A DNA stretch of 42,007 bases from Candidatus Rokuibacteriota bacterium (GCA_003221655.1 QHSV01000235.1:1-42007), one strand, 5' to 3'. Counted from the first letter of the stretch, positions 6,759 to 42,007 are shown. The notes: generated by a model not told the origin, from the letters alone. Made by a program: numbers and translations.

Positions 6759-7411
6759 GCGCCCACCAACCGGTCTGCCGCCGCGGTGACCTCATCCAGG
6801 CTCCGCTCGACAACCTTGCGGACGCACTCTCGGTCGGCATCGCGCGCGATCGTCGTCGCGGCACCGAACACCAGGGCGGCGCGGGCGAAGGGTGCCGGAA
6901 CCAGGAACGCGTCCCAAGTCGCAAGGCGATTGGCCGGTCTGGCGGCGAATCCCAGAGGAACCACCGGCGCGCCCGTCAGGCCCGCGAGGGCGACAACGCC
7001 GGGCGCGAGCTGACCGCGCGGCCCCCGCGGGCCGTCGGGCACCAGGGCCACGTCCCGACCGGCCCGGACGGCCGTCACGAGAGCACGAAACGCCGTCGCA
7101 CCGCCCCTCGACGACGACCCCCTGACCACGTCAAGACCGAAGCGGCTCACGTAGCTGCCGACGAGGCCACCGGCGCGCGAACGGCTGGCCAGCACGCTGA
7201 CGGTGCGGGCACCGTGGGTCCGGCGCAACCGGGCGTTGAGCCAGGGCACCATCAAGATGCGCCCGTGCCATACGCAGTAGATCAGCGGGCGCGCGGCTGT
7301 CCAGTGCGGCACCAGAGCGTCGACCCCCTCGACGCGCAGACGCAGCGTCGCCCCCAGGAGTCGCACCAACGTCGCGGCGACAGGCGGCACCAGCGCGAAC
7401 CGAGGATCCAT
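6755..7411 (-). CDS. DUF374 / lysophospholipid acyltransferase-like protein commonly adjacent to waaA
   Basis: ORF 6755..7414 (GTG at 7414 or ATG at 7411). Motifs YCVWHGRIL, VLASRSRAGG, VVRGSSSRGG and VPDGPRGPRG match the DUF374 pattern. Its stop overlaps the waaA start (ATGATG). Confidence 0.7.
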   Translation of the reverse strand: MDPRFALVPPVAATLVRLLGATLRLRVEGVDALVPHWTAARPLIYCVWHGRILMVPWLNARLRRTHGARTVSVLASRSRAGGLVGSYVSRFGLDVVRGSSSRGGATAFRALVTAVRAGRDVALVPDGPRGPRGQLAPGVVALAGLTGAPVVPLGFAARPANRLATWDAFLVPAPFARAALVFGAATTIARDADRECVRKVVERSLDEVTAAADRLVGA

Positions 7412-7504
7412 CACAGACTCGCCTCGGGCGCGGACACCCTGCGGCTGCGCACCGCCATCACAGACTCGCCTCGGGCGCCGACACCCTGCGGCTTCGTGCC
7501 GCCA
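7411..7504 (-). repeat. tandem direct repeat, 2 x 47 nt (43/47 identical), encoding two chained 15-codon mini-ORFs
   Basis: Plus strand 7411-7457 is tcacagactcgcctcgggcgcggacaccctgcggctgcgcaccgcca. Plus strand 7458-7504 is tcacagactcgcctcgggcgccgacaccctgcggcttcgtgccgcca. The repeat lies exactly between the lpxB stop and the DUF374 start. Confidence 0.9.
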
Positions 7505-8413
7505 TCAGGCGGCGCCCGCCTGGGCGAGGACGAAGCGCGCGGCGCGCGTTCCCACGCCGGGTTCTCCGAGCGGTGCCGCCTCCAGGGTGACGGTGCCTGA
7601 GGTGGCGAGGAGCAGATCGGCCGCGCGGATGACGGCATGTGTCTGACCACCGAGGATCTCGACGGGCGGACCACCGTGGAGGTGGTGCACGGCGAGCCGC
7701 CGGTCGATCGTGGGCGCCAGGCCCAGCAGGAACCGGGTTCCCGGCACGGCGGCCAGCACTTGCGCCGCCGCATCCCGCATCAACGGCAGCATGCGAACGA
7801 TCTCCTGGTGGCGACTCCCTGGCAGGAGCCCGATCACGGGGGTCCGGTCCTCGATCCCGAGCCCGCGTCGCGCCTCCTCACGGGTCGGCACCGCCTCAAG
7901 CTGGTCGAGCAGCGGATGCCCGACGAACTCGACGGGCACTCCCGCCCGGCGGTAGAGAGGAGTTTCGAACGGGAACACAGCGAGCACGAGGGAGACGAAC
8001 CTCCGGATCGTCTTCACCCGGCCCCCGCGCCACGCCCACACCTGAGGAGGAATGAAGTACACGACCGGGACGCCCGCGCGCTGCGCGGCGCGCGCGAGGC
8101 ACAGATTGAACTCGGGAAAGTCGATCAGGACGAGCACGGCCGGGCGTTCGACGCCGCGGAGCGCGGCGCGTAGCCCGCGGTAGGCGCGGTAAAGGCGCGG
8201 CACCTGGCCGAGCGCCTCACTCCCTCCGACGACGGCGTTCGCAGTCACGTCTACCAGGAGGTCCATTCCCGCTGCGGCCATGCCCGCACCGCCCATCCCG
8301 AAGAGTCGCCAGCCCGGGTCGAGCCCACGCAACGCCCGACACAGACCGGCGCCATGGAGGTCGCCGGAGGCCTCGCCCGCGACGAGCATAATCGCCTTCG
8401 ACCGGCCGGTCAT
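7505..8413 (-). CDS. lpxB: lipid-A-disaccharide synthase, apparently 3'-truncated (302 codons)
   Basis: ORF 7505..8773. An ATG at 8413 (MTGRSKAIMLVAGEASGDLHGAGL...) makes a TGATG overlap with the lpxI stop. GT19 features IDFPEFN, PPQVWAWR, LLPGSR and SGTVTLEAA are present. The ORF ends only about 24 codons after the SGT-TLE motif. Confidence 0.8.
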   Translation of the reverse strand: MTGRSKAIMLVAGEASGDLHGAGLCRALRGLDPGWRLFGMGGAGMAAAGMDLLVDVTANAVVGGSEALGQVPRLYRAYRGLRAALRGVERPAVLVLIDFPEFNLCLARAAQRAGVPVVYFIPPQVWAWRGGRVKTIRRFVSLVLAVFPFETPLYRRAGVPVEFVGHPLLDQLEAVPTREEARRGLGIEDRTPVIGLLPGSRHQEIVRMLPLMRDAAAQVLAAVPGTRFLLGLAPTIDRRLAVHHLHGGPPVEILGGQTHAVIRAADLLLATSGTVTLEAAPLGEPGVGTRAARFVLAQAGAA

Positions 8414-10220: not shown

Positions 10221-11078
10221 TTACACCGGCTCGCTTTCCGGGCGCGGGACCAGGCGCTCCCCGGCCCCGAGCGCCGAGCCCCCTCGCTGCGCGGCGCCGC
10301 AGATCCCGCGCCGAGCGCCGGTGATGAAGTCGAGCAGGCCGATCACCGGTGCTGCTGCCGGCAGCTCCCGGCGGATCCGCTCGACGGCCCGCCGCGGCGA
10401 GAGCCCGCTCCGGTACAGCAGTCGATACGCGTCCTGCAAGAGCCGGCGATCAGCGGCAGCGATGCCGGCACGCCTCAACCCGACGATGTTGATCCCGTGG
10501 GCGGTGACCGGGTTTCCCTCCACCAGAACATAGGGAGGCACGTCGGCGTTGACCCTCGAGAGGCCTCCAACGTACGCGTACGCGCCGATGCGTGTGAACG
10601 GTACTATGCCGACGAAGGCCCCGATCGTGGCCCGCTCGCCGATCTGACAGTGTCCGCTGATTGCGGCGCCGTTGATGATGATGGCGCCGTCGCCGACGCG
10701 ACAATCGTGGGCCACGTGGCTCGTGACCATGAGCAGGCATCCCTTGCCGATCTCGGTCCATCCTCCGGCGCTGGTCGCGCGGTGGATCGTCACGTACTCT
10801 CGGATCACGGTGTCGGCGCCGATCCGGACGCCGGACGGGGTGTCGTCACAATACTTGAGGTCCTGGGGCCGTCCGCCCAGCAACGACCCGTGGCCCACCT
10901 TCGCGCGCTCGCCGATCTCGACGCGACCCTCGAACACGCAGTGGTGTCCGATCTCGGCATCGGCGCCGATGGTCACCTCGGAGCCGACGACGGAAAACGC
11001 GCCGATCCGGACGCCCGCGCCGAGCGTCGCCTTCGGATCTACCACGGCCGTCGGATGCACGCCCTCAGGCATCGCCAA
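10221..11078 (-). CDS. lpxA: acyl-ACP--UDP-N-acetylglucosamine O-acyltransferase
   Basis: Hexapeptide-repeat left-handed beta-helix protein with IHPTAVVDP-type start, VTSHVAHDCRVGDG (catalytic His region) and a helical C-terminal domain. GGGAGG lies 5 nt upstream of the TTG at 11078. An alternative ATG is at 11072. Confidence 0.88.
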   Translation of the reverse strand: MAMPEGVHPTAVVDPKATLGAGVRIGAFSVVGSEVTIGADAEIGHHCVFEGRVEIGERAKVGHGSLLGGRPQDLKYCDDTPSGVRIGADTVIREYVTIHRATSAGGWTEIGKGCLLMVTSHVAHDCRVGDGAIIINGAAISGHCQIGERATIGAFVGIVPFTRIGAYAYVGGLSRVNADVPPYVLVEGNPVTAHGINIVGLRRAGIAAADRRLLQDAYRLLYRSGLSPRRAVERIRRELPAAAPVIGLLDFITGARRGICGAAQRGGSALGAGERLVPRPESEPV

Positions 11079-14017: not shown

Positions 14018-16465
<2,448 letters not shown>

Positions 16466-17340: not shown

Positions 17341-18562
17341 CGACGGGGACCAACGACCCCGCGCGCCTGGCCGGGATGATGGTGGCCAGGAACGACAGCA
17401 GAAGCGTGGCGCCGATGATCATGAGTCCGTCGCTCACCGTGAGCTTCATGGGAAGGTGGTCGATCTGGTACACGTCGCCGGCCAGTCTGATCACCTTGTA
17501 GGTGTTCTGTGCCCAGATCACGCTGAGGCCGACGGCGGCGCCGGCCGCCGTGCCAGCAACGCCGATCGTCATGCCGACCGCGAAGAACACCATTGTGATC
17601 GACCGCGCCGAAGCGCCGACGGCCTTGAGGATGCCGATCTCCTTGCGCTTCTCGGCGACGAGCAACACGAGGTGACCGATGATCGCGAACGCCGCGACCA
17701 GCACGATGATTGTCACCACGACGAAGAGGGCGAGCTTTTCGAGCTGGAGCGCGGCAAAGAGACTCCGATTCATCTCCATCCAGTCGCGCACCCAGTAGCG
17801 AAAGCCCAGCTCGGCGGCCACCACCTGGCCGACGCGCTTGGCGTCGAACGGATCCGCGAGCTTGACCTCGATCCCGGTGACTCCGGCGATCCCCGCGAAC
17901 TCCTTGGCCACGGGCAGGCTCAGGTAGGCGATCGAGGAATCGTATTCGTGCATGCCGATCTCGATCGTGCCAGCCACCGTGTAGCGCCGCATCTTGGGGA
18001 CCATGCCGACAGCCGTCACGGCGCCCTCCGGAGAGATCACCGTCACGGGGTCGCCGGGGAACACGCCGAGATTCCGCGCCAGCTCGCGGCCCAGCAGGAT
18101 CGCGGGCGCGCCGTCGGCGAGCGGCTCGAGCGCCCCCTGACGGAGCTGCGACCGAACGTCCTCCCGGACCGCCGGAGTCGTCAGGTCCACGCCCCGGATC
18201 AGACCGCCGCGCGCCCCACCGCCGGACGTGGTGAAGAGCGCCTGCTGATGCACGAAGGGAGTGGCCGAGTGCACGCCCCGAATCGTCTTCACGCGGCCGG
18301 CGATGCGGTCCGCTTCGTCGAGCCCTTGCGCCCCGCTCTGGAAGATCAGCAGATGCGGGCTTCCGGCAATGATCCGATCGCGGATCCCATCCTGAAAGCC
18401 AGTCATCACCGCGAGCACCACGATGAGCGCGGCGACCCCGAGGAACACCCCACCAAGGCCGATCCAGACGAAAAGCGACAGGTTCGTCCGCTGCCCGCGC
18501 GATCTGAGATACCGGAAGCCCAGCAGAAGCTCGAATGGCAGCCCCCGTTTCATGAGCCCCAT
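17321..18562 (-). CDS. lipoprotein-releasing system transmembrane permease, LolC/LolE family
   Basis: 413-aa ORF. The N-terminus LPFELLLGFRYLRSRGQRTNLSLF is typical of LolC/E (MacB-FtsX fold). It has a periplasmic domain and a C-terminal FtsX-like TM bundle. Its start makes a TGATG overlap with the lysS stop. Confidence 0.82.
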
Positions 18563-20067
18563 CAGCTTTCCTCGCCAGCGCCGGCCGCGCGCCCGCCTTC
18601 CGGTCGCAGGAGCGGGAACAGGATCACCTCGCGGATCGACGGCTGGTTCGCGAACATCATGAGCAGCCGGTCGATGCCGATGCCCTCGCCCGAGGCGGGC
18701 GGCATGCCGTACTCGAGCGCCCGGACGTAGTCCTCGTCGAGCCAGTGGGCCTCGTCGTCCCCCCGCGCCTGCAGGCCCGCCTGCTCGCGGAAGCGCGCGA
18801 GCTGGTCGACCGGGTCGTTCAGCTCGCTGTAGGCGTTCGCCATCTCGTGCTGCGCGACGAACAACTCGAACCGATCGACGAGCAGTGGGTTGTCCCGCTT
18901 GCGCTTGGCGAGCGGGGAGAGCTCGGTCGGGAAGTCGACCACGAACGTCGGCTGGACCAATGTCGGCTCAACCAGGGTCTCGAACGCCTCCTTCCAGAGT
19001 TTCGGCGCGGGTCCCTCGTCGTGAACGATGCCGCGCGCGGCCGCCGCCCGTGCCACAGCTGCGACGTCCGTCTCGGGCGTCACGCAGAGCCCGAGGGTCT
19101 CGGACAGGCCGTCGAAGAACGCTAGCCGCCGCCAGGGCGGCTTGAGGTCGAGCGGGTGCTCGCCCCACATGAGGGCCAGGGAGCCCCGCAGCGAGTGGGC
19201 GAGGTCGACGAAGAGCGCTTCCGTCAGCTCCATCAGATCCGTGTAGTCGGCGTACGCCTGATAGAACTCGAGCATCGTGAACTCAGGGTTGTGCAGCGTC
19301 GAGGTCCCCTCGTTCCGGAAGTTCCGGTTGATCTCGTAGACGCGCTCGAAGCCACCGACGAGGAGCCGTTTCAGGTAGAGCTCGGGGGCGATGCGCAGAT
19401 AGAGATCCATGCCGAGCGCGTTGTGGTGGGTCTTGAACGGCCGCGCGATCGCGCCGCCGGGAATCGGCTGCATCATGGGTGTCTCGACCTCGAGGAAGCC
19501 CCGCGCGTCGAGGAACGCCCGCATGGCCCGGATCAGTCGCGCGCGCATCAGGAAAATCTCGCGCGCCTCGGTGTTGACGATCAGGTCCACGTACCGTTGC
19601 CGGTAACGCGTCTCGACGTCCTTCAGGCCGTGCCACTTCTCTGGGAGAGGCCGCAGCGACTTGGCCAGGAAGCTGACGGTCTTCACGGCGACCGTCAACT
19701 CCCCTGTCCGCGTCCGGAACATCTCGCCCGTCACGCCGATGAAGTCGCCCGCGTCGAGCTCGACAAAGCGCGCGTACTCGTCGCCGAGCCCGTCGGCACG
19801 CGCGTAGAGCTGGATCCGTGCTGTCTGGTCCATGAGATGCGCGAAGCACGTCTTGCCGTGATGGCGCATCGCCACGACGCGACCCGCGAGGCTCACGGGA
19901 CCGAAGCCTTTCAGCTCCTCCTCGCTCGCGCCGCCGAGCCGCTCGGCGAGGCCGCGAGCCCAGTGCGTCACGGGATACCGGCCACCGAACGGATCGATCC
20001 CGCTCCGGCGCAGGGCCTCAAGCTTTTCACGCCGTTGCCGGATCAGCTCGTTGTCGTCGTGATTCAC
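18562..20067 (-). CDS. lysS: lysine--tRNA ligase (class II)
   Basis: 501-aa ORF with an OB anticodon-binding domain and class II motifs (...FLEVETPMMQ..., ...YEINRNFRNEG..., ...GIGIDRLLM...). Its GTG start makes a GTGA overlap with the prfB stop. Confidence 0.92.
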   Translation of the reverse strand: MNHDDNELIRQRREKLEALRRSGIDPFGGRYPVTHWARGLAERLGGASEEELKGFGPVSLAGRVVAMRHHGKTCFAHLMDQTARIQLYARADGLGDEYARFVELDAGDFIGVTGEMFRTRTGELTVAVKTVSFLAKSLRPLPEKWHGLKDVETRYRQRYVDLIVNTEAREIFLMRARLIRAMRAFLDARGFLEVETPMMQPIPGGAIARPFKTHHNALGMDLYLRIAPELYLKRLLVGGFERVYEINRNFRNEGTSTLHNPEFTMLEFYQAYADYTDLMELTEALFVDLAHSLRGSLALMWGEHPLDLKPPWRRLAFFDGLSETLGLCVTPETDVAAVARAAAARGIVHDEGPAPKLWKEAFETLVEPTLVQPTFVVDFPTELSPLAKRKRDNPLLVDRFELFVAQHEMANAYSELNDPVDQLARFREQAGLQARGDDEAHWLDEDYVRALEYGMPPASGEGIGIDRLLMMFANQPSIREVILFPLLRPEGGRAAGAGEES

Positions 20068-20958
20068 GCTTCCCGGCCCCGCGCCCAGAGCAGGTATGCC
20101 TTGATCAGAGCGTCCAGGTCGCCGTCCATGACGGCGTCGACGTTACCGACCTCGAGCCCGGTCCGATGATCCTTGATCAGTTGGTAGGGATGGAACGTGT
20201 ACGAGCGGATCTGGCTGCCAAAGGCAATCTCCTTCTTCTGACCCGTCAGCTCGGCCAGCTCTTCGCGCTGCTCCTCGACATCGTCGACCTCGGGGACCAC
20301 CGCCACCGAGGCAAAGCTCGTCTGTCGACGGCGCGAAGCGTCGAACGGAGAGATCCGCACCAGACGGTGCACGCCCGTCTCGCCGCGGAGGTAGCCGAAC
20401 GCGTACTCGCCGGATACCTCGACCGTCGCGGACTTGATGCCGGCCTCGTCACCCGGGAGCAGATCAACGACCTCCGCCTTCAAGCCCGCGCGCTCACACC
20501 ATCTGAGATACATCCGGAGCAGCATCTGCGCCCAATCCTGCGACTCGGTACCCCCCGCTCCAGGATGGATCGACACGATCGCGGCCTTCGTGTCGTGGGA
20601 CCCCGAGAGCATGATCTTCATCTCGAACTCGTCGAGGTCCTTCCGGAGGCCCGCCACGCCGTCGGCGATCTCGGCGTCGAGGCTCCCGTCGGTCGCCTCT
20701 TCGGCCAGCTCGAGGAGCACCGTGAGATCCTCGGCCTTGGCGGCGAGCTCCTTCACCCGTGTGACGAGCCGCGATAGCTCGGTCCGCTCGCGGATGACCT
20801 CCTGCGCGCGACGGTTGTCCTCCCAGAAGGACGGTTGCGCCATCTCGGTGTCGAGCGCGGTGAGCCGCTGCTCTTTGACGGGGACGTCAAAGATGCCCCC
20901 GGAGCTCGGTCAGGCGACCCGTGAGCTCGGCCACATCACGCTTGGAATCACCCAGCAT
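20064..20958 (-). CDS. prfB: peptide chain release factor 2 with programmed +1 frameshift; GGQ-bearing segment absent
   Basis: Frame 0 runs 20958..20890 (MLGDSKRDVAELTGRLTELRGHL), followed by TGA. Frame +1 runs 20888..20064 (DVPVKEQRLTALDTEMAQPSFWED...). AGGTESQDWA and SPF (RISPFD) motifs are present. No GGQ motif occurs anywhere in the product. Total length is about 297 aa. Confidence 0.85.
20886..20901 (-). promoter_or_regulatory. RF2 autoregulatory +1 frameshift site
   Basis: The minus strand reads CGG GGG CAT CTT TGA C. That is an internal SD-like GGGGG, a 3-nt spacer and the slippery CTT followed by in-frame TGA C, the canonical prfB recoding cassette. Confidence 0.88.
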
Positions 20959-22475
20959 CAGGCAGCTCGTGGCCGCGCGCGCGCGGCCAGTGACGCGCCC
21001 GACACGCCGAGCGCCAGATAGGCGAGCCAGTCACCGAAGCGGGAGTAGACGGTCTCTCCGGCACGCAGGGGCACGCGCTCGGTGAGCGTCGTGCGCTCGT
21101 AGAGCGACGCGCGCCGCACGATCTGTCCGGTCGGCGCGATGAACGCCGACACCCCGGTGTTCGCCGCACGCACCACCGAGACGCGGTGCTCGACCGCGCG
21201 GAACGGGTACATGGCAAGATGCTGCCACGGGCCGCTCGTCCGGCCGAACCAAGCGTCGTTCGTCATGTTTACGATCAGGCGCGCCCCACCTCTCATGAAT
21301 TCACGGACGAGCTCCGGGAAGATCCCCTCGTAACAGATTACGACGGCGAACGGGGCTGGCGGGCCCGGGAAGACGCTCGCACGGGAGCCCGGCTCGAGCT
21401 CAGCGATGAACTCGGCCCAGCCCCTGACGAATCCGATCAATCTCGACAGCGGCACGAACTCTCCGAACGGGACGAGGTGGATCTTATCATACCTCCCGAC
21501 AATCCCACGTTCAGTCAGGAGAAACGCGCTGTTATACAGCTTGGGCGGAGTCGCTCCATCAGCATCGATGGAGCCCACGAGCAACGGGGCGCTGACGGCC
21601 CTGGACATGGCCGCCAGAGCTCTCAGAAGGTCCTCATCACGGCGGAGCACCGTGGGGACAGCCGTCTCGGGCCACACGATCAGATCGGGGTGCTCGGCAC
21701 CCGCCCGCTGTGTCAGAGAGAGGTAAATCTCGACCGTCTTCTCGGCATAGTTGGGCTCGAACTTCAGCGGCTGCTCGATCGATGGCTGCATGATGGCCAC
21801 CTTGGCCTCGTCCGAGGACAGGGGAGCGCCTAGGCGCCAGATCCCAAAGCCCATCGTACCGCCGAGCACCACCCCGGCGAGCGCAACCCCGCCGAGGGCG
21901 GAACGCCACGAGAGGACGAGACAGCCCGCGAGCGCGGCGTTCACCGCGACGATCACGAGCGAGACCCCGTAGACGCCTCCGAGCTCGGCGATCTGGATGA
22001 CGGGCAGGCGCAGGTACTGCGCGTAGCCGAGAATGCCCCAGGGGAAGCCACCGAAGAGATGACCGCGAACCCACTCCCCGCCCACCCACAAGAACGGCGA
22101 CGCGCAGAGAGCCCGGGCGACCGAGCGTCGCGCCAGCCACGACACGGCGGCGGCGAAGACCCCGACATACAACCCGCAATACGCTGCGAGCGCGAGCGTT
22201 GGGCCCCAGGTCAACGGCCAGGGAATCGTGCTGTAGGTCCTGAACGTGAAATCGAGCCACCGCAGCAGCATCAGGAAGAATACGGTCCCGAAGAACCACC
22301 CCCACCCAAGGGCGGCGCGTGCCGGGCCCCTCACCGTGGTCACCAGCAGCGGCGCCAGGACCACCCAGACGACGTCCTCCCAGTCGGTGCGGGGAAAAGC
22401 CAGCGCCATGCCGACGGCGGTGGCCGCGAGGACGGCAGCGCGGGGAAGCGACGGGCGTAGGATCAGGAGCCCCAC
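20958..22475 (-). CDS. lnt: apolipoprotein N-acyltransferase
   Basis: This is the C-terminal ~505 codons of ORF 20958..22823. A GTG at 22475 is the first start compatible with the upstream stop at 22463. It has multi-TM N-terminal helices and a nitrilase-type CN-hydrolase domain with WPE, YDKIHLVPFGE and VVICYE (E-K-C triad). Confidence 0.82.
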   Translation of the reverse strand: MGLLILRPSLPRAAVLAATAVGMALAFPRTDWEDVVWVVLAPLLVTTVRGPARAALGWGWFFGTVFFLMLLRWLDFTFRTYSTIPWPLTWGPTLALAAYCGLYVGVFAAAVSWLARRSVARALCASPFLWVGGEWVRGHLFGGFPWGILGYAQYLRLPVIQIAELGGVYGVSLVIVAVNAALAGCLVLSWRSALGGVALAGVVLGGTMGFGIWRLGAPLSSDEAKVAIMQPSIEQPLKFEPNYAEKTVEIYLSLTQRAGAEHPDLIVWPETAVPTVLRRDEDLLRALAAMSRAVSAPLLVGSIDADGATPPKLYNSAFLLTERGIVGRYDKIHLVPFGEFVPLSRLIGFVRGWAEFIAELEPGSRASVFPGPPAPFAVVICYEGIFPELVREFMRGGARLIVNMTNDAWFGRTSGPWQHLAMYPFRAVEHRVSVVRAANTGVSAFIAPTGQIVRRASLYERTTLTERVPLRAGETVYSRFGDWLAYLALGVSGASLAARARPRAA

Positions 22476-23188
22476 GCCAGCCGGTCGGCGAGAAACCGAG
22501 GCAACCCTCCGCGGCGGATCTTCGTTGCCGCCGTCGCGATGTCGTAGACGACGCGCCGGCTCGCGACCGTTCCCCGCTCGGTGTCCCAGATCGCGTAGGC
22601 CGCGCGTGGGTCCCGATCGCGCGGCTGACCGACGCTGCCCACATTGACGATGTAGCGGCGGCCGCGCTCCAGCGCGAAATCGATCGGCCCCGGCAGGTGC
22701 TCCGGCCCGGTGGAACCCAGCGACCACACGCTCACCAGATGCGAGTGGCCGACGAAGCAGAGCCGCGTGGCGAACGCCGAGAACGCATCGAAGCCGTCCT
22801 GCGCTGTGACGAGATATTCCCATTCGTCAGGGCGATCGGGCGAGGCGTGGACGAGGGTGGCGTCGCCCACCACCGTGACCAGCGGGAGTCCGGCCAGGTA
22901 CGTCCGGTGATCGTCGTCCAGTCGCTCACGCGTCCATTCGGCGGCAGCGCGCGCGTGGGGATTGAACCAGTCGAGCGCGAGAAGGCCGGCCACGCCATGC
23001 TCGTGATTGCCGCACGTGATCGACTGCGCACGCTCGGCGACGATCTCGACGCAGGCAACCGGATCGGCACCGTAGCCGACGAGATCCCCGAGACAGAGGA
23101 GCGCGTCCGTCCGCGGCGCCGCGTCGGCCAGCACGGCCTCGAGCGCCTCGAGGTTGCCATGAATGTCGGAGAGCACCGCGTACCGCAC
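22463..23188 (-). CDS. metallophosphoesterase family protein (calcineurin-like phosphodiesterase)
   Basis: ORF 22463..23335. A GTG at 23188 (VRYAVLSDIHGN) lies 8 nt after the nusB stop. Motifs DIHGN, GDLVGYG, GNHE and GH are present. Confidence 0.72.
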   Translation of the reverse strand: MRYAVLSDIHGNLEALEAVLADAAPRTDALLCLGDLVGYGADPVACVEIVAERAQSITCGNHEHGVAGLLALDWFNPHARAAAEWTRERLDDDHRTYLAGLPLVTVVGDATLVHASPDRPDEWEYLVTAQDGFDAFSAFATRLCFVGHSHLVSVWSLGSTGPEHLPGPIDFALERGRRYIVNVGSVGQPRDRDPRAAYAIWDTERGTVASRRVVYDIATAATKIRRGGLPRFLADRLAWGS

Positions 23189-23196
23189 GGCCGGGC

Positions 23197-23613
23197 TCAG
23201 GAGATTGGACGGAGTTCTTTGTGGATGCGGTCGAGCACGCCGTTGATGAATCGGCTCGACTCCTTCGTTCCGAATTTCTTGGCGATCTCGATGGCCTCGT
23301 TGATGGCGACCTTCGGCGGCACGTCCGCGGTCCACAGCAGTTCATAGACGGCCAGCCGAAGGATATTGCGGTCGACGACGGCCATCCGCTCGAGGTCCCA
23401 GTGCTCGGCGCACTGCGAAATCACCTGGTCGATCTTCGCCTGGTTCGCTTTGGCGCCCCGCACCAGGGCGTCGCCGAACACCCGCGTACTTCCGTCGACT
23501 GGGTGGCGCGCCCAGAATTCAACCTCGTGCGGTGTCGGATCGTCCTCACCGTTGAGGTCGAGCTGGTACAGGAACTGGAGCGCGACCTCGCGGGTCTTCC
23601 TGCGCTTTCCCAT
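23197..23613 (-). CDS. nusB: transcription antitermination factor NusB
   Basis: ATG at 23613 (MGKRRKTREVALQFLYQLDL...). It has the AINEAIEIAKKFG...FINGVLD C-terminal signature and the conserved position after ribH. Confidence 0.88.
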   Translation of the reverse strand: MGKRRKTREVALQFLYQLDLNGEDDPTPHEVEFWARHPVDGSTRVFGDALVRGAKANQAKIDQVISQCAEHWDLERMAVVDRNILRLAVYELLWTADVPPKVAINEAIEIAKKFGTKESSRFINGVLDRIHKELRPIS

Positions 23614-23614
23614 T

Positions 23615-24232
23615 TTATCGGGTGCCGTGAGGCCGCCTTGGACCGCGGGTGGCCTGAGAAAGGCGCACGTGGCCCCGACTCGCCCGTTCACCCGCTTCTG
23701 AAGGGGTCACGCGCGCAGGGCTCCGACTCGCCCGCTCACCTTCTACTCCGCCATCGCGTATGCTTCGGATCCACTCGGCCATCTGCAGAGCCGCCTCGGC
23801 GGCCTCTTCACCCCGGTTGCCCACCTCGCCGCCCGCTCGCGCCCACGCTTGCTCTTCACTCAGAGCCGTGATGAGCCCGAAGGTCGCTGGCACGCCGGTG
23901 GCCAGCGCCACCTGTCGGATGCCCGATGCGGCCTCGCGCGCAACGTGCTCGAAGTGGGGAGTCTGGCCTCGGATCACGACGCCCACGCACACGATCCCTG
24001 CGTACCGGCCGGTCGCCGCCAGGTGGCTCGCGGCTTGAGGGAGCTCGAAGGATCCAGGCACCCAATGCACCTCGATGGCGTCGGGACCGAGCCGGGCGGC
24101 CCGGAGCGCTTGTAACGCACCGGCGACGAGCCGCTGGGTGATGCGCTCGTTGAAGCGGGCTGCAACGATCGCGAACCTGAGTGATCCGGGGCTCCGGGCG
24201 ACCCGGCGGAGCTTCGGGGCGCGACCGGCCAT
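23615..24232 (-). CDS. ribH: 6,7-dimethyl-8-ribityllumazine synthase with ~45-codon Arg-rich C-terminal extension
   Basis: Motifs FAIVAARFNERIT, VPGSFELP, VVIRGQTPHFEHV and GNRGEEAA are present. The conserved core ends near ...ALQMAEWIRSIR, but the frame stays open to the TAA at 23615. Confidence 0.85.
   Translation of the reverse strand: MAGRAPKLRRVARSPGSLRFAIVAARFNERITQRLVAGALQALRAARLGPDAIEVHWVPGSFELPQAASHLAATGRYAGIVCVGVVIRGQTPHFEHVAREAASGIRQVALATGVPATFGLITALSEEQAWARAGGEVGNRGEEAAEAALQMAEWIRSIRDGGVEGERASRSPARVTPSEAGERASRGHVRLSQATRGPRRPHGTR
23671..23740 (-). repeat. imperfect direct repeat, 22-nt core x2 spaced 48 nt, inside the ribH 3' extension
   Basis: Plus strand 23671-23692 is ggccccgactcgcccgttcacc. 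Plus strand 23719-23740 is ggctccgactcgcccgctcacc (20/22 identical). Flanks are weakly similar. The protein shows GERASR twice. Confidence 0.75.
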
Positions 24233-39608: not shown

Positions 39609-40918
39609 CGCTGGGTCGTTGGCTGGAGCACGACGACGGTCGGGTGGGTCAGGTACCGTTCCGCGGCCCGTGCCACATCCGCGGCCGTCACGGCCTCGAT
39701 CGCGCGTGCGTAGCGCTCCGGGAAGTCCCAGCCAGCGCCAACAACCTCGAAGAAGGCGAGATACCAGGCCTGGCGGGCGTTCGTGCGCCGGTCCATCGAG
39801 AGCTGACCCCGGACGTACGCCTTGGCGCGGGCCAGCTCCTCGGCGGTGATGGGCGCGGCTCGTACGCGCTCGAGCTCGTGTAACACGCCCACCTCGGCCG
39901 CGGCGGCGTTCGCCGGCGCCGTCCCCAGGTAGGCCACGAAGAACGCCGGCCCGGTGCGGAACGGAGGGACCACCACGCCCGTCGAGTAGGCGAGCCCGCG
40001 GCGGTCGCGAAGCTCCACGAAGAGGCGGCCGGCCATGCCGCCACCGAGCGTCGCCGCGAGAACCCGAACCGCCGGGTGGAGAGGATCCGACAGCCCTGGC
40101 CCGAGATAGCCGACCAAAATCTGCGCTTGCTGGGCGCGACGCTCGATGAGCCGGCGTTCACCTGCAGGCTCGGGAACCGCGAGCGCATCCCCGGCGTGCG
40201 GCGCCGAGCGAGCCATCCGGCCGAAGAGCCGCTCGGCGACCTGGATGACACGCCCCCGCTCCACCTGGCCACTCACCGCGAGCACCATCCGCTCCGGGCG
40301 GTAGATCGCTCGGTAGTGCGTCCGCAGCTCGTCACGCGTCAGCTGCTCGATGCTCTCCTTGTGGCCGAGGTAGTGCCGCCCGTAGGGATGAGGACCGTAG
40401 AGGTCCCGGAGCATCGCGTCGAAGGTGAACGAAAAGGGCGCGTCCGCTCGGGATTTGATCTGGGCGAGGAGCAGCCGACGCTCTCTTTCGATCTCCTCCG
40501 GCTCCAACGCCGGCTCGAGGGCGGCTTCGGCAATCAGTGCGAGGAGCGTCGTCCAGTTGCGCGCCAGCGTCTGGCCCCGCACCTCCGCGGCCTCGACCTC
40601 ACCACCCGCGTCGAGCGTGCCGCCGATATCTTCATAGCTCGTGGCGAACTGCTCGGCCGTCCGCTTGGCCGTGCCGCGGAGCATTGCGCGATGGAGGAAG
40701 TTGGTAATGCCGGCGGTCGTCTCCGTCTCGAAGCGCGAGCCGGCCCGCACCTGGAGCGACACGGCGACCGCTGGGACCGCAGCGTTCTCGCGCACGAGCA
40801 CCGTCATCCCGTTCGCGAGCACGTGTCGCGTGACCTGCCGCTCCTGGGCGGCGGCGCCGCCGGCCGCGAGGCCAAGCGCGAGAACTGCCGATCCGAGCGA
40901 CAGGCCGATGCGCCTCAT
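39605..40918 (-). CDS. M16 family peptidase-like protein, predicted non-catalytic (no HxxEH)
   Basis: ORF 39605..41050. An ATG at 40918 (MRRIGLSLGSAVLALGLAAGGAAAQE signal peptide) makes an ATGA overlap with the upstream stop at 40915. The zinc-motif position reads GITNFLHRAMLRGT instead of HxxEH. Confidence 0.78.
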   Translation of the reverse strand: MRRIGLSLGSAVLALGLAAGGAAAQERQVTRHVLANGMTVLVRENAAVPAVAVSLQVRAGSRFETETTAGITNFLHRAMLRGTAKRTAEQFATSYEDIGGTLDAGGEVEAAEVRGQTLARNWTTLLALIAEAALEPALEPEEIERERRLLLAQIKSRADAPFSFTFDAMLRDLYGPHPYGRHYLGHKESIEQLTRDELRTHYRAIYRPERMVLAVSGQVERGRVIQVAERLFGRMARSAPHAGDALAVPEPAGERRLIERRAQQAQILVGYLGPGLSDPLHPAVRVLAATLGGGMAGRLFVELRDRRGLAYSTGVVVPPFRTGPAFFVAYLGTAPANAAAAEVGVLHELERVRAAPITAEELARAKAYVRGQLSMDRRTNARQAWYLAFFEVVGAGWDFPERYARAIEAVTAADVARAAERYLTHPTVVVLQPTTQR

Positions 40919-42007
40919 CGAGCCGGCGGGACGAACGCCAGCCGCCCGTAGCGCTCGGGATCCAGGTAGCGCCGCGCCGCGAGGCGAACCTGCTCGGACG
41001 TGACCGATCGCACGCGGTCGATGTAGGCGAGCTCCTCGGCGAGCCGCCACACTGTCTCGGCGTGGCCGAGCAGGCGGGCCCGCCCCTCGGCGGTCTCGCT
41101 CCGAAAAGCATGCTCGGCCTCAGCCTGGGTGATCGCCCGGCGGAGCTCCGCGTCCGTCACCCCCTGCTCGCGCAGGCGCTGGACCACCCTCAGGATTTCG
41201 GCCTCGGCGCGGGCGAGGTTTGGAGCCTCGAGTTGAGCCGTCACCATGATCACGCCACCAGCCTCGTACGCCGTGTAGTCGGAGCCGACCGAATTGACGA
41301 GGGCGAGTCGCTCGCGGAGCGACTGGGGCAGGCGTGAGGACCGCGACTGACCGAGGATCGAGACGAGCAGATCCACGGCAGGAGTGTCGGCGTGATCGAG
41401 TCTCGGGCCGAGCCACCCCATGCCGAGGTATGCGAACGCTCCGGGCCGCGGATCGTCGACTCTTTTCGGCGTGAGGCTCGCGGGCGCGGAGCCGGATAGC
41501 CGCTGGAACCCGCTGCGCGGCAGCCGGCCCAACGTTCGCTCCGCCGCCCTGAGTGTTTCGGTCGGGTTGACGGGACCGACGACCACCAGCGCGAACGACT
41601 CGGGGACGTAGTGGCGACGGTAGAAGGCGAGCAGCGTGTCGCGCGTGAGCGTCTGGATGATGTCGGCCGTGCCAAGAATCGGACGGCTGTAGGGGTGGCT
41701 GCCGAACACCACACCGTAGAACTGCCGGGCGAGATGCCGTTGCGGACTGTCTTCGCTGAGCCGCATCTCCTCGAGCACGACTTTCTTCTCGAGCTCGAGC
41801 TCGGTCTCGTCGAGGATCGAGTTGACGCTGATGTCGGCGAGCATCTCGATGGTCGCAACCGCACGCGGCGCCGGCAACACCGCATGATAGAACGTGTAGT
41901 CGAGCGAGGTTCCAGCATTCATCCGTCCGCCGACACCTTCGACATCCCGGTCCACGAAGCCTCGGGGCCGTGTGGTCGTGCCCTTGAAGAGCATGTGCTC
42001 GAGGTAG
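40915..42007 (-). CDS. M16 family zinc peptidase (pitrilysin-like), 5' end outside window
   Basis: The frame is open to the window edge. The last codons read ...YLEHMLFKGTTTRPRG, the xxEH part of HxxEH followed by the canonical FKGT. The rest is M16 / M16_C-like. Confidence 0.8.
   Translation of the reverse strand, partial: YLEHMLFKGTTTRPRGFVDRDVEGVGGRMNAGTSLDYTFYHAVLPAPRAVATIEMLADISVNSILDETELELEKKVVLEEMRLSEDSPQRHLARQFYGVVFGSHPYSRPILGTADIIQTLTRDTLLAFYRRHYVPESFALVVVGPVNPTETLRAAERTLGRLPRSGFQRLSGSAPASLTPKRVDDPRPGAFAYLGMGWLGPRLDHADTPAVDLLVSILGQSRSSRLPQSLRERLALVNSVGSDYTAYEAGGVIMVTAQLEAPNLARAEAEILRVVQRLREQGVTDAELRRAITQAEAEHAFRSETAEGRARLLGHAETVWRLAEELAYIDRVRSVTSEQVRLAARRYLDPERYGRLAFVPPAR

Follow-up and report, generated by a model that had tools for sequence, protein, structure and literature searches.

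A prfB gene without its GGQ segment in a Rokubacteria contig is probably a defect of the deposited sequence

Release factor 2 (RF2) is the sole reader of UGA. The GGQ motif is required for peptidyl-tRNA hydrolysis, and in an RF2 carrying GGA (a Gln-to-Ala substitution) the rate of peptide release falls to 0.0015 per second (PMC3919579). In plants, the RF2-derived protein PrfB3 has lost both the SPF and the GGQ motifs and stabilises petB mRNA (PMC5897788). A naturally occurring RF2 able to recognise stop codons without hydrolysing would, if true, represent a novel type of regulator of translation, here in a TGA-rich organism. A prfB gene of this appearance is located on a contig from Candidatus Rokuibacteriota bacterium (GCA_003221655.1, QHSV01000235.1); the whole stretch of 42,007 nt that was analysed is called the window here and makes up this contig in full. 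Its source population belongs to Candidatus Rokubacteria / Methylomirabilota and has a GC content of 68.6%. If translated as written, the gene would yield a protein with domains 1, 2 and 4 and the SPF motif and without the GGQ loop, which could at best bind UGA/UAA without peptide release.

Outside the gap, the window gene is, by its predicted features, a textbook frameshift-regulated prfB (Table 1). The frameshift cassette comprises an SD-like GGGGG, the slippery codon CUU and a UGA in frame with a C directly after it; it lies about where it is expected in a bacterial prfB (near codon 24-26) and is also found in relatives (L001-L003). The joined product retains the segments AGGTESQDWA, RISPFD (residues 201-206) and GSQIRSY...DHRTG. 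Its PCRF domain is complete (Pfam PF03462, 193.8 bits, profile positions 2-194 of 194). The RF-1 domain is fragmentary, with a match to profile positions 77-116 of 116 only (Pfam PF00472, 21.3 bits, cut-off 35), and the GGQ tripeptide, sought in the 297-aa frameshifted product, is absent. These profile matches, which an earlier note on this DNA had proposed to obtain, bear out its description of a prfB that keeps its frameshift site and SPF motif and lacks GGQ. The product scores 360.8 bits against NCBIfam TIGR00020 in two pieces, under the cut-off of 370, and with the 210 missing nucleotides restored it scores 512.4 bits, above the cut-off. RF2 chains from the PDB likewise align in two blocks, with chain residues 229-297 skipped. 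Of the features that define a bacterial RF2, the gene thus has the PCRF domain, SPF, the +1 frameshift site and the orthologous position, and as written it lacks the RF-1/GGQ domain and a TIGR00020 score above the cut-off.

The gene is embedded in the order ribD-ribE-ribBA-ribH-nusB-metallophosphoesterase-lnt-prfB-lysS-lolE-lolD-clpB-bamA-ompH-lpxA, which matches that of relatives L001, L003, L102 and L106; the order lnt-prfB-lysS-lolE is also kept in L109-L113. The TGA of lnt (20960..20958) shares one base with the prfB ATG. The best protein matches are RF2 proteins of Candidatus Rokuibacteriota and Methylomirabilota MAGs. As judged from gene order and these matches, the window prfB is the orthologous lnt-prfB-lysS locus and not a paralogue.

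Table 1. Coordinates of the features discussed, in window positions.
Feature	Position	Strand	Remark
prfB (release factor 2)	20064..20958	minus	ATG 20958..20956; joined product 297 aa
prfB ORF0	20958 to CTT at 20892..20890	minus	read in frame 0
prfB ORF1	20888 to TGA stop 20066..20064	minus	after +1 shift at CTT/T/GAC
prfB +1 frameshift cassette CGG GGG CAT CTT TGA C	20901..20886	minus	
SPF stop-codon recognition tripeptide (TCT CCG TTC)	20351..20343	minus	residues 203-205
Fusion codon GAG (E229)	20271..20273	minus	deletion junction
lnt (apolipoprotein N-acyltransferase)	20958..22475	minus	directly upstream of prfB; start inferred from 505-aa orthologues
GTGA overlap, prfB stop / lysS GTG start	20064..20067	minus	
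lysS	20067..18562	minus	downstream of prfB
lpxB	7505..8413	minus	second clean in-frame deletion

The segment missing from the window prfB is exactly 210 nt, or 70 codons, and includes GGQ. Every relative aligned, at the protein or the DNA level, puts the breakpoint at the same place, between bases 20273 and 20272 of the window. The absent piece, TCAACGTG...GAAAAGA, encodes V229 to K298 of the intact 367-aa protein, with GGQ at positions 248-250. Residues 229-298 form the core of domain 3, comprising GGQ and the first half of the long helix. Both sides are cut after codon position 1 (G/TC...A/AG, fused to GAG), so the cut is not codon-aligned. The in-frame gap and the in-frame fusion described in the earlier note are therefore real, and its details require adjustment: the gap had been put at about 71 residues and the full length at about 365 aa, compared with 70 residues and the 367 aa of intact conspecific RF2, and the extra Glu at the junction, now placed at 20273/20272, is the fused GAG codon. 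The two similar words that had been thought to flank the gap (GTCGAC and GTCGAG) are both located upstream of the junction and also occur in the intact genes. No microhomology was found at the prfB junction. The window contains no Ns, and neither a copy of the 210 nt nor a GGQ or RF domain was found elsewhere in it.

Several specific causes of the junction were considered and rejected. A polymerase jump mediated by a hairpin is not supported, as shuffled sequences fold at least as well as the full-length segment (z = +0.89). For a repeat-mediated deletion, the only nearby repeat is GAGCTGGCCGA, whose copies are 30 nt apart and do not bracket the gap. A strain chimera at the prfB junction conflicts with contig L113, which is near-identical to the window on both flanks. 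Dropped FASTA lines were dismissed by arithmetic on the coordinates, the breakpoints being off multiples of 60, 70 and 80 from either contig end.

The most direct evidence is provided by ten conspecific contigs (L105-L114) from ENA, JGI and NCBI assemblies of at least nine samples, with 97.7-99.8% nucleotide identity to the window. In each of the ten, the 210 nt are present exactly at 20273/20272. The discovery of about 210 extra nucleotides with a GGQ motif at this junction in related genomes had been set beforehand as the sign of an assembly artefact, and the near-identical flanks of these ten contigs support the misassembly or deletion artefact that the earlier note had listed among its readings. 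L113 (JGI 3300005558) is especially close. Over 895 bases of prfB it differs from the window by five changes, every one synonymous, and its 367-aa RF2 is the same as the window product at all retained residues except the fused junction codon. On the upstream flank of the junction the two contigs differ at 5 of 2300 nt, and on the downstream flank at 3 positions over roughly the first 1070 nt. The contig's prfB sequence equals the intact gene of the population minus 70 codons. As read from these contigs, the source population has an ordinary, intact, apparently frameshift-regulated prfB at this locus.

The spanning contigs were obtained by a search with full-length LysS. The first conspecific contigs, reached via RibBA, LolE and OmpH, do not extend to prfB: the first 17 either miss the region or break off within lysS (18681-19589) or lnt (21814-22516). 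A search with an N-terminal fragment of LysS returned only short partial proteins with an identity of at most 89%. The population itself (99-99.9% nucleotide identity) is found in many ENA and JGI soil assemblies, and strain diversity is seen in it at the prfB locus. Eight of its contigs from other samples break inside lysS or lnt, which indicates that the lnt-prfB-lysS region is hard to assemble.

The wider comparison gives the same picture. GGQ is present in all 120 of the best protein homologues, each of at least 329 aa, and the GGQ segment is encoded in 79 of 79 complete prfB loci of GTDB species representatives (an 80th, interrupted by a contig end, was left out). The gapped prfB is consequently the only one of its kind in a set of over 200 RF2 genes and proteins, made up of the 120 protein matches, the 79 GTDB loci and the 10 conspecific contigs. 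A degenerate pattern of the junction had zero matches in the GTDB representative genomes and one chance match in JGI metagenome contigs (L004), which is unrelated to the window. The repaired 329-aa protein is exactly matched in a public protein collection (P0371, on 9 contigs). Exact look-up of the truncated 259-aa and 297-aa products in this collection, which apparently leaves out the window's own contig, returned no record, nor did that of the window's LysS and LolD. Five more distant relatives (L001-L003, L009 and L102; 82-90% DNA and 82-95% protein identity to the window) are too distant for a strain-level deletion to be told apart from variation between lineages.

The window has a further clean deletion, also in frame, in lpxB, which belongs to an lpxA-lpxI-lpxB-lpxK-kdtA cluster. 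Most diderm bacteria require LpxB to make lipid A. The window lpxB lacks 240 nt (80 aa) between 7573 and 7572, again cut after codon position 1 and in frame, with no microhomology at the junction. The 240 nt are carried by all four aligned conspecific contigs (L092-L095), with which BLAST coordinates group L096. The window LpxB has 302 aa; among the nine other members of its protein cluster, eight have 382 aa and one has 379 aa. The Pfam LpxB match covers profile positions 1-284 of 374 in the window product. This 302-aa LpxB is already in protein databases as though genuine.

An indel scan against conspecific contigs, which took in ~32 of the 42 kb of the window, detected only two large gaps, those in prfB and lpxB. 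Large genes without conspecific cover were assessed by Pfam domain coverage, which is full for SecA, RecN, NAD kinase, the TlyA-like protein, a glycosyltransferase and two M16 peptidases, with the exception of one M16 ORF (40915..41994) that is without the first 39 profile positions of the N-terminal domain. A related defect is present in a sister NCBI contig, L110 (GCA_009772675.1), in which a clean 149-nt out-of-frame deletion breaks clpB, as judged against the window and three other spanning conspecific contigs (L106, L107 and L109).

Taken together, these comparisons suggest that the prfB gap is most probably a defect of this one deposited contig, introduced by a local error of assembly, scaffolding or curation; the 210-nt gap is most likely not a property of the organism. 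It is judged a probable artefact, or at most a one-off dead allele, rather than a new release factor because ten conspecific contigs with matching flanks are intact. The segment is present in independent assemblies, and further comparable defects occur in the same contig (lpxB) and in the sister contig (clpB of L110). A deletion-type misassembly, or an error of curation or gap closing, would have removed the 210 nt locally; for example, two sub-contigs may have been abutted without the intervening sequence. A cell whose only prfB was the gapped one, and which also had the shortened LpxB, would not be expected to live, since GGQ is needed for peptidyl-tRNA hydrolysis and TGA is the stop codon in 24 of 32 gene-sized ORFs on the minus strand of the window. 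These 32 were hand-picked from an ORF list and are not annotated genes; the earlier note had given at least 21 genes ending in TGA. Two broken essential genes on one 42-kb contig, each with a gap unique among many conspecific contigs and with no accompanying divergence, are not what would be expected of a lineage that is alive, a paralogue in decay or a variant shaped by adaptation.

Some properties of the junctions count against an artefact. A pure de Bruijn contig normally holds no junction without read support, and de Bruijn errors do not usually leave a clean, N-free junction without flanking repeats, so the reading as real alleles keeps some weight. Both window gaps are also multiples of three (chance 1/9), which tolerated in-frame alleles might show. 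The assembler may accordingly have picked up real, very recent loss-of-function alleles (prfB minus 210 nt and lpxB minus 240 nt), carried by non-viable or short-lived variants, by relic DNA, or in company with an intact complementing copy. Deletions by illegitimate recombination can give clean N-free junctions of this kind, de Bruijn assemblers require read support for each k-mer, in-frame gaps would preserve translational coupling to the downstream genes, and the population is strain-diverse at the locus. This explanation nevertheless appears unlikely. It calls for two independent inactivating deletions in essential genes on one 42-kb molecule, and the alleles are seen in none of the ten conspecific contigs for prfB and none of the four aligned for lpxB (the fifth being assigned by BLAST coordinates). 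The absence of microhomology is unusual for spontaneous bacterial deletions, and an allele at assembly-level frequency should meet strong counter-selection where 24 of the 32 ORFs end in TGA. The stronger version, in which the GGQ-less prfB and the short lpxB would be real alleles of living Rokubacteria, for example in polyploid or merodiploid cells beside intact copies, with a hydrolysis-dead 297-aa product that would still decode and sit on UGA/UAA stop codons with no release of the peptide, is very doubtful.

The earlier note had also allowed for a decaying copy whose function a second prfB would cover. This reading is taken here to include a redundant copy, with the working prfB elsewhere in the genome. 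The view is limited to one 42-kb contig of that genome, which leaves room for such a gene. The copy that is seen, however, occupies the single orthologous lnt-prfB-lysS locus with its frameshift site intact. Apart from the gap, no amino acid is exchanged with respect to intact conspecific genes, the five differences from L113 being synonymous, and a tandem or nearby second prfB occurs in none of the relatives examined (flanks of up to 10 kb on each side). Decay is thus highly improbable. The third suggestion of the note, a functional RF2 that would bind UGA/UAA via SPF and be dead in hydrolysis, acting for example as a regulator or a stop-codon blocker, fits the intact PCRF domain, SPF, C-terminal part of the long helix, GSQIRSY region and frameshift site and has a precedent for non-termination RF2 derivatives in plant PrfB3 (PMC5897788), but it is extremely improbable for a gene that exhibits zero evolutionary conservation of the gap in any other assembly, matches the normal gene outside the gap, takes the place of the only visible prfB rather than adding to one, is not cut along codons and shares its contig with a comparable lpxB gap, which argues for a common non-adaptive cause.

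As a feature, the gapped prfB is, on the comparisons above, most probably not biological. Its value is that of a data-quality flag: a public contig contains at least two clean, in-frame, N-free gaps in essential genes. Gaps of this type escape frameshift and stop-codon checks and can therefore give false leads in searches for unusual domain architectures. When set beside conspecific contigs, they soon become apparent.

Compared with canonical RF2 (TIGR00020; PCRF and RF-1 domains; autoregulatory +1 frameshift), the window gene shares the locus, the cassette, the PCRF domain, SPF and the C-terminal domain, and its product is 100% identical to intact conspecific RF2 outside the gap. It differs in lacking residues 229-298, and its RF-1 and TIGR00020 scores are below the cut-offs. 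Laboratory GGQ mutants of RF1 and RF2 bind stop codons and barely hydrolyse peptidyl-tRNA, and the window product, if translated, would likewise keep decoding and lose catalysis. Those mutants, however, are in vitro point substitutions in which domain 3 is otherwise complete, whereas the window gene is without most of domain 3 and its product is known from sequence alone. Plant PrfB3 is, like the window product, an RF2 homologue without GGQ (PMC5897788). In contrast to the window gene, it is an extra paralogue beside functional PrfB1 and PrfB2 and is conserved across land plants. The window prfB keeps SPF, is the only copy at its orthologous locus and is conserved in no relative. A PrfB3-like derivative was rejected: the gap occurs in 0 of 10 conspecific contigs, 0 of 120 proteins and 0 of 79 GTDB loci, and the gene lies at the orthologous locus with no substitutions. 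The remaining comparison is with misassembly or gap-closure errors in metagenomes. Unlike typical cases, the window junctions are without a repeat, an N-run or microhomology. As in such errors, a segment present in all independent assemblies is missing at clean junctions, several events are found in the window contig and one in its sister, and the region breaks other assemblies.

The window lpxB lacks 240 nt (80 aa), cleanly and in frame, relative to four aligned conspecific contigs (L092 to L095); a fifth, L096, was grouped with these by BLAST coordinates rather than by alignment. The shortened LpxB of 302 aa, which is present as a protein entry in NCBI nr, covers only positions 1-284 of 374 in the Pfam LpxB profile. 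The other members of the LpxB cluster are 382 aa long in eight of nine cases and 379 aa in one. A 47-nt tandem duplication runs across the boundary between lpxB and the DUF374 gene, taking in the stop codon of the former and the start of the latter, and each unit is opened by a TGATGG stop/start overlap. Two copies of the unit are found in the window and in L093, and one copy in L092, L094 and L095; the duplication is either strain-variable or another assembly difference.

Features around the lpxB and prfB loci (window positions, forward-strand numbering)
Feature	Position	Strand	Details
lpxB	7505-8413	minus	deletion junction 7573|7572
47-nt tandem duplication	7408-7507		2.1 copies, 92% match
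prfB/lysS stop-start overlap	20064-20067		GTGA
lnt/prfB stop-start overlap	20956-20960		TGATG
Indel-rich region	23613-23770	minus	3´ part of ribH, as far as the ribH/nusB junction

In other samples, eight contigs belonging to this population each break off within lysS (window 18681-19589) or lnt (21814-22516), and the lnt-prfB-lysS segment is therefore seldom recovered in one piece with its flanks. The window differs from the prfB-spanning contigs by a cluster of variants at 19005-19204, which suggests that co-occurring strain haplotypes may fragment assemblies at this locus. The overlapping stop and start codons suggest, at the sequence level, that lysS is translationally coupled to prfB, and such coupling would survive the in-frame prfB gap.

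Small indels are abundant among the conspecific contigs in the 3´ part of ribH. RibH is 205 aa long in the window and in L005 to L008, and 212-213 aa in five contigs that span prfB (L106, L107 and L110 to L112). Judged from these sequences, the difference looks like natural length variation close to the C-terminus.

The sister NCBI contig L110 (GCA_009772675.1, WNGN01003512.1) carries a gap in clpB near its position 10658, where 149 nt equivalent to window 15550-15698 are absent. This segment is kept in the window and in all three other conspecific contigs spanning the site (L106, L107 and L109). This loss shifts the reading frame, and clpB is not called as a gene at that place in L110. It is the same type of clean gap as that of the window, in a different NCBI-deposited assembly.
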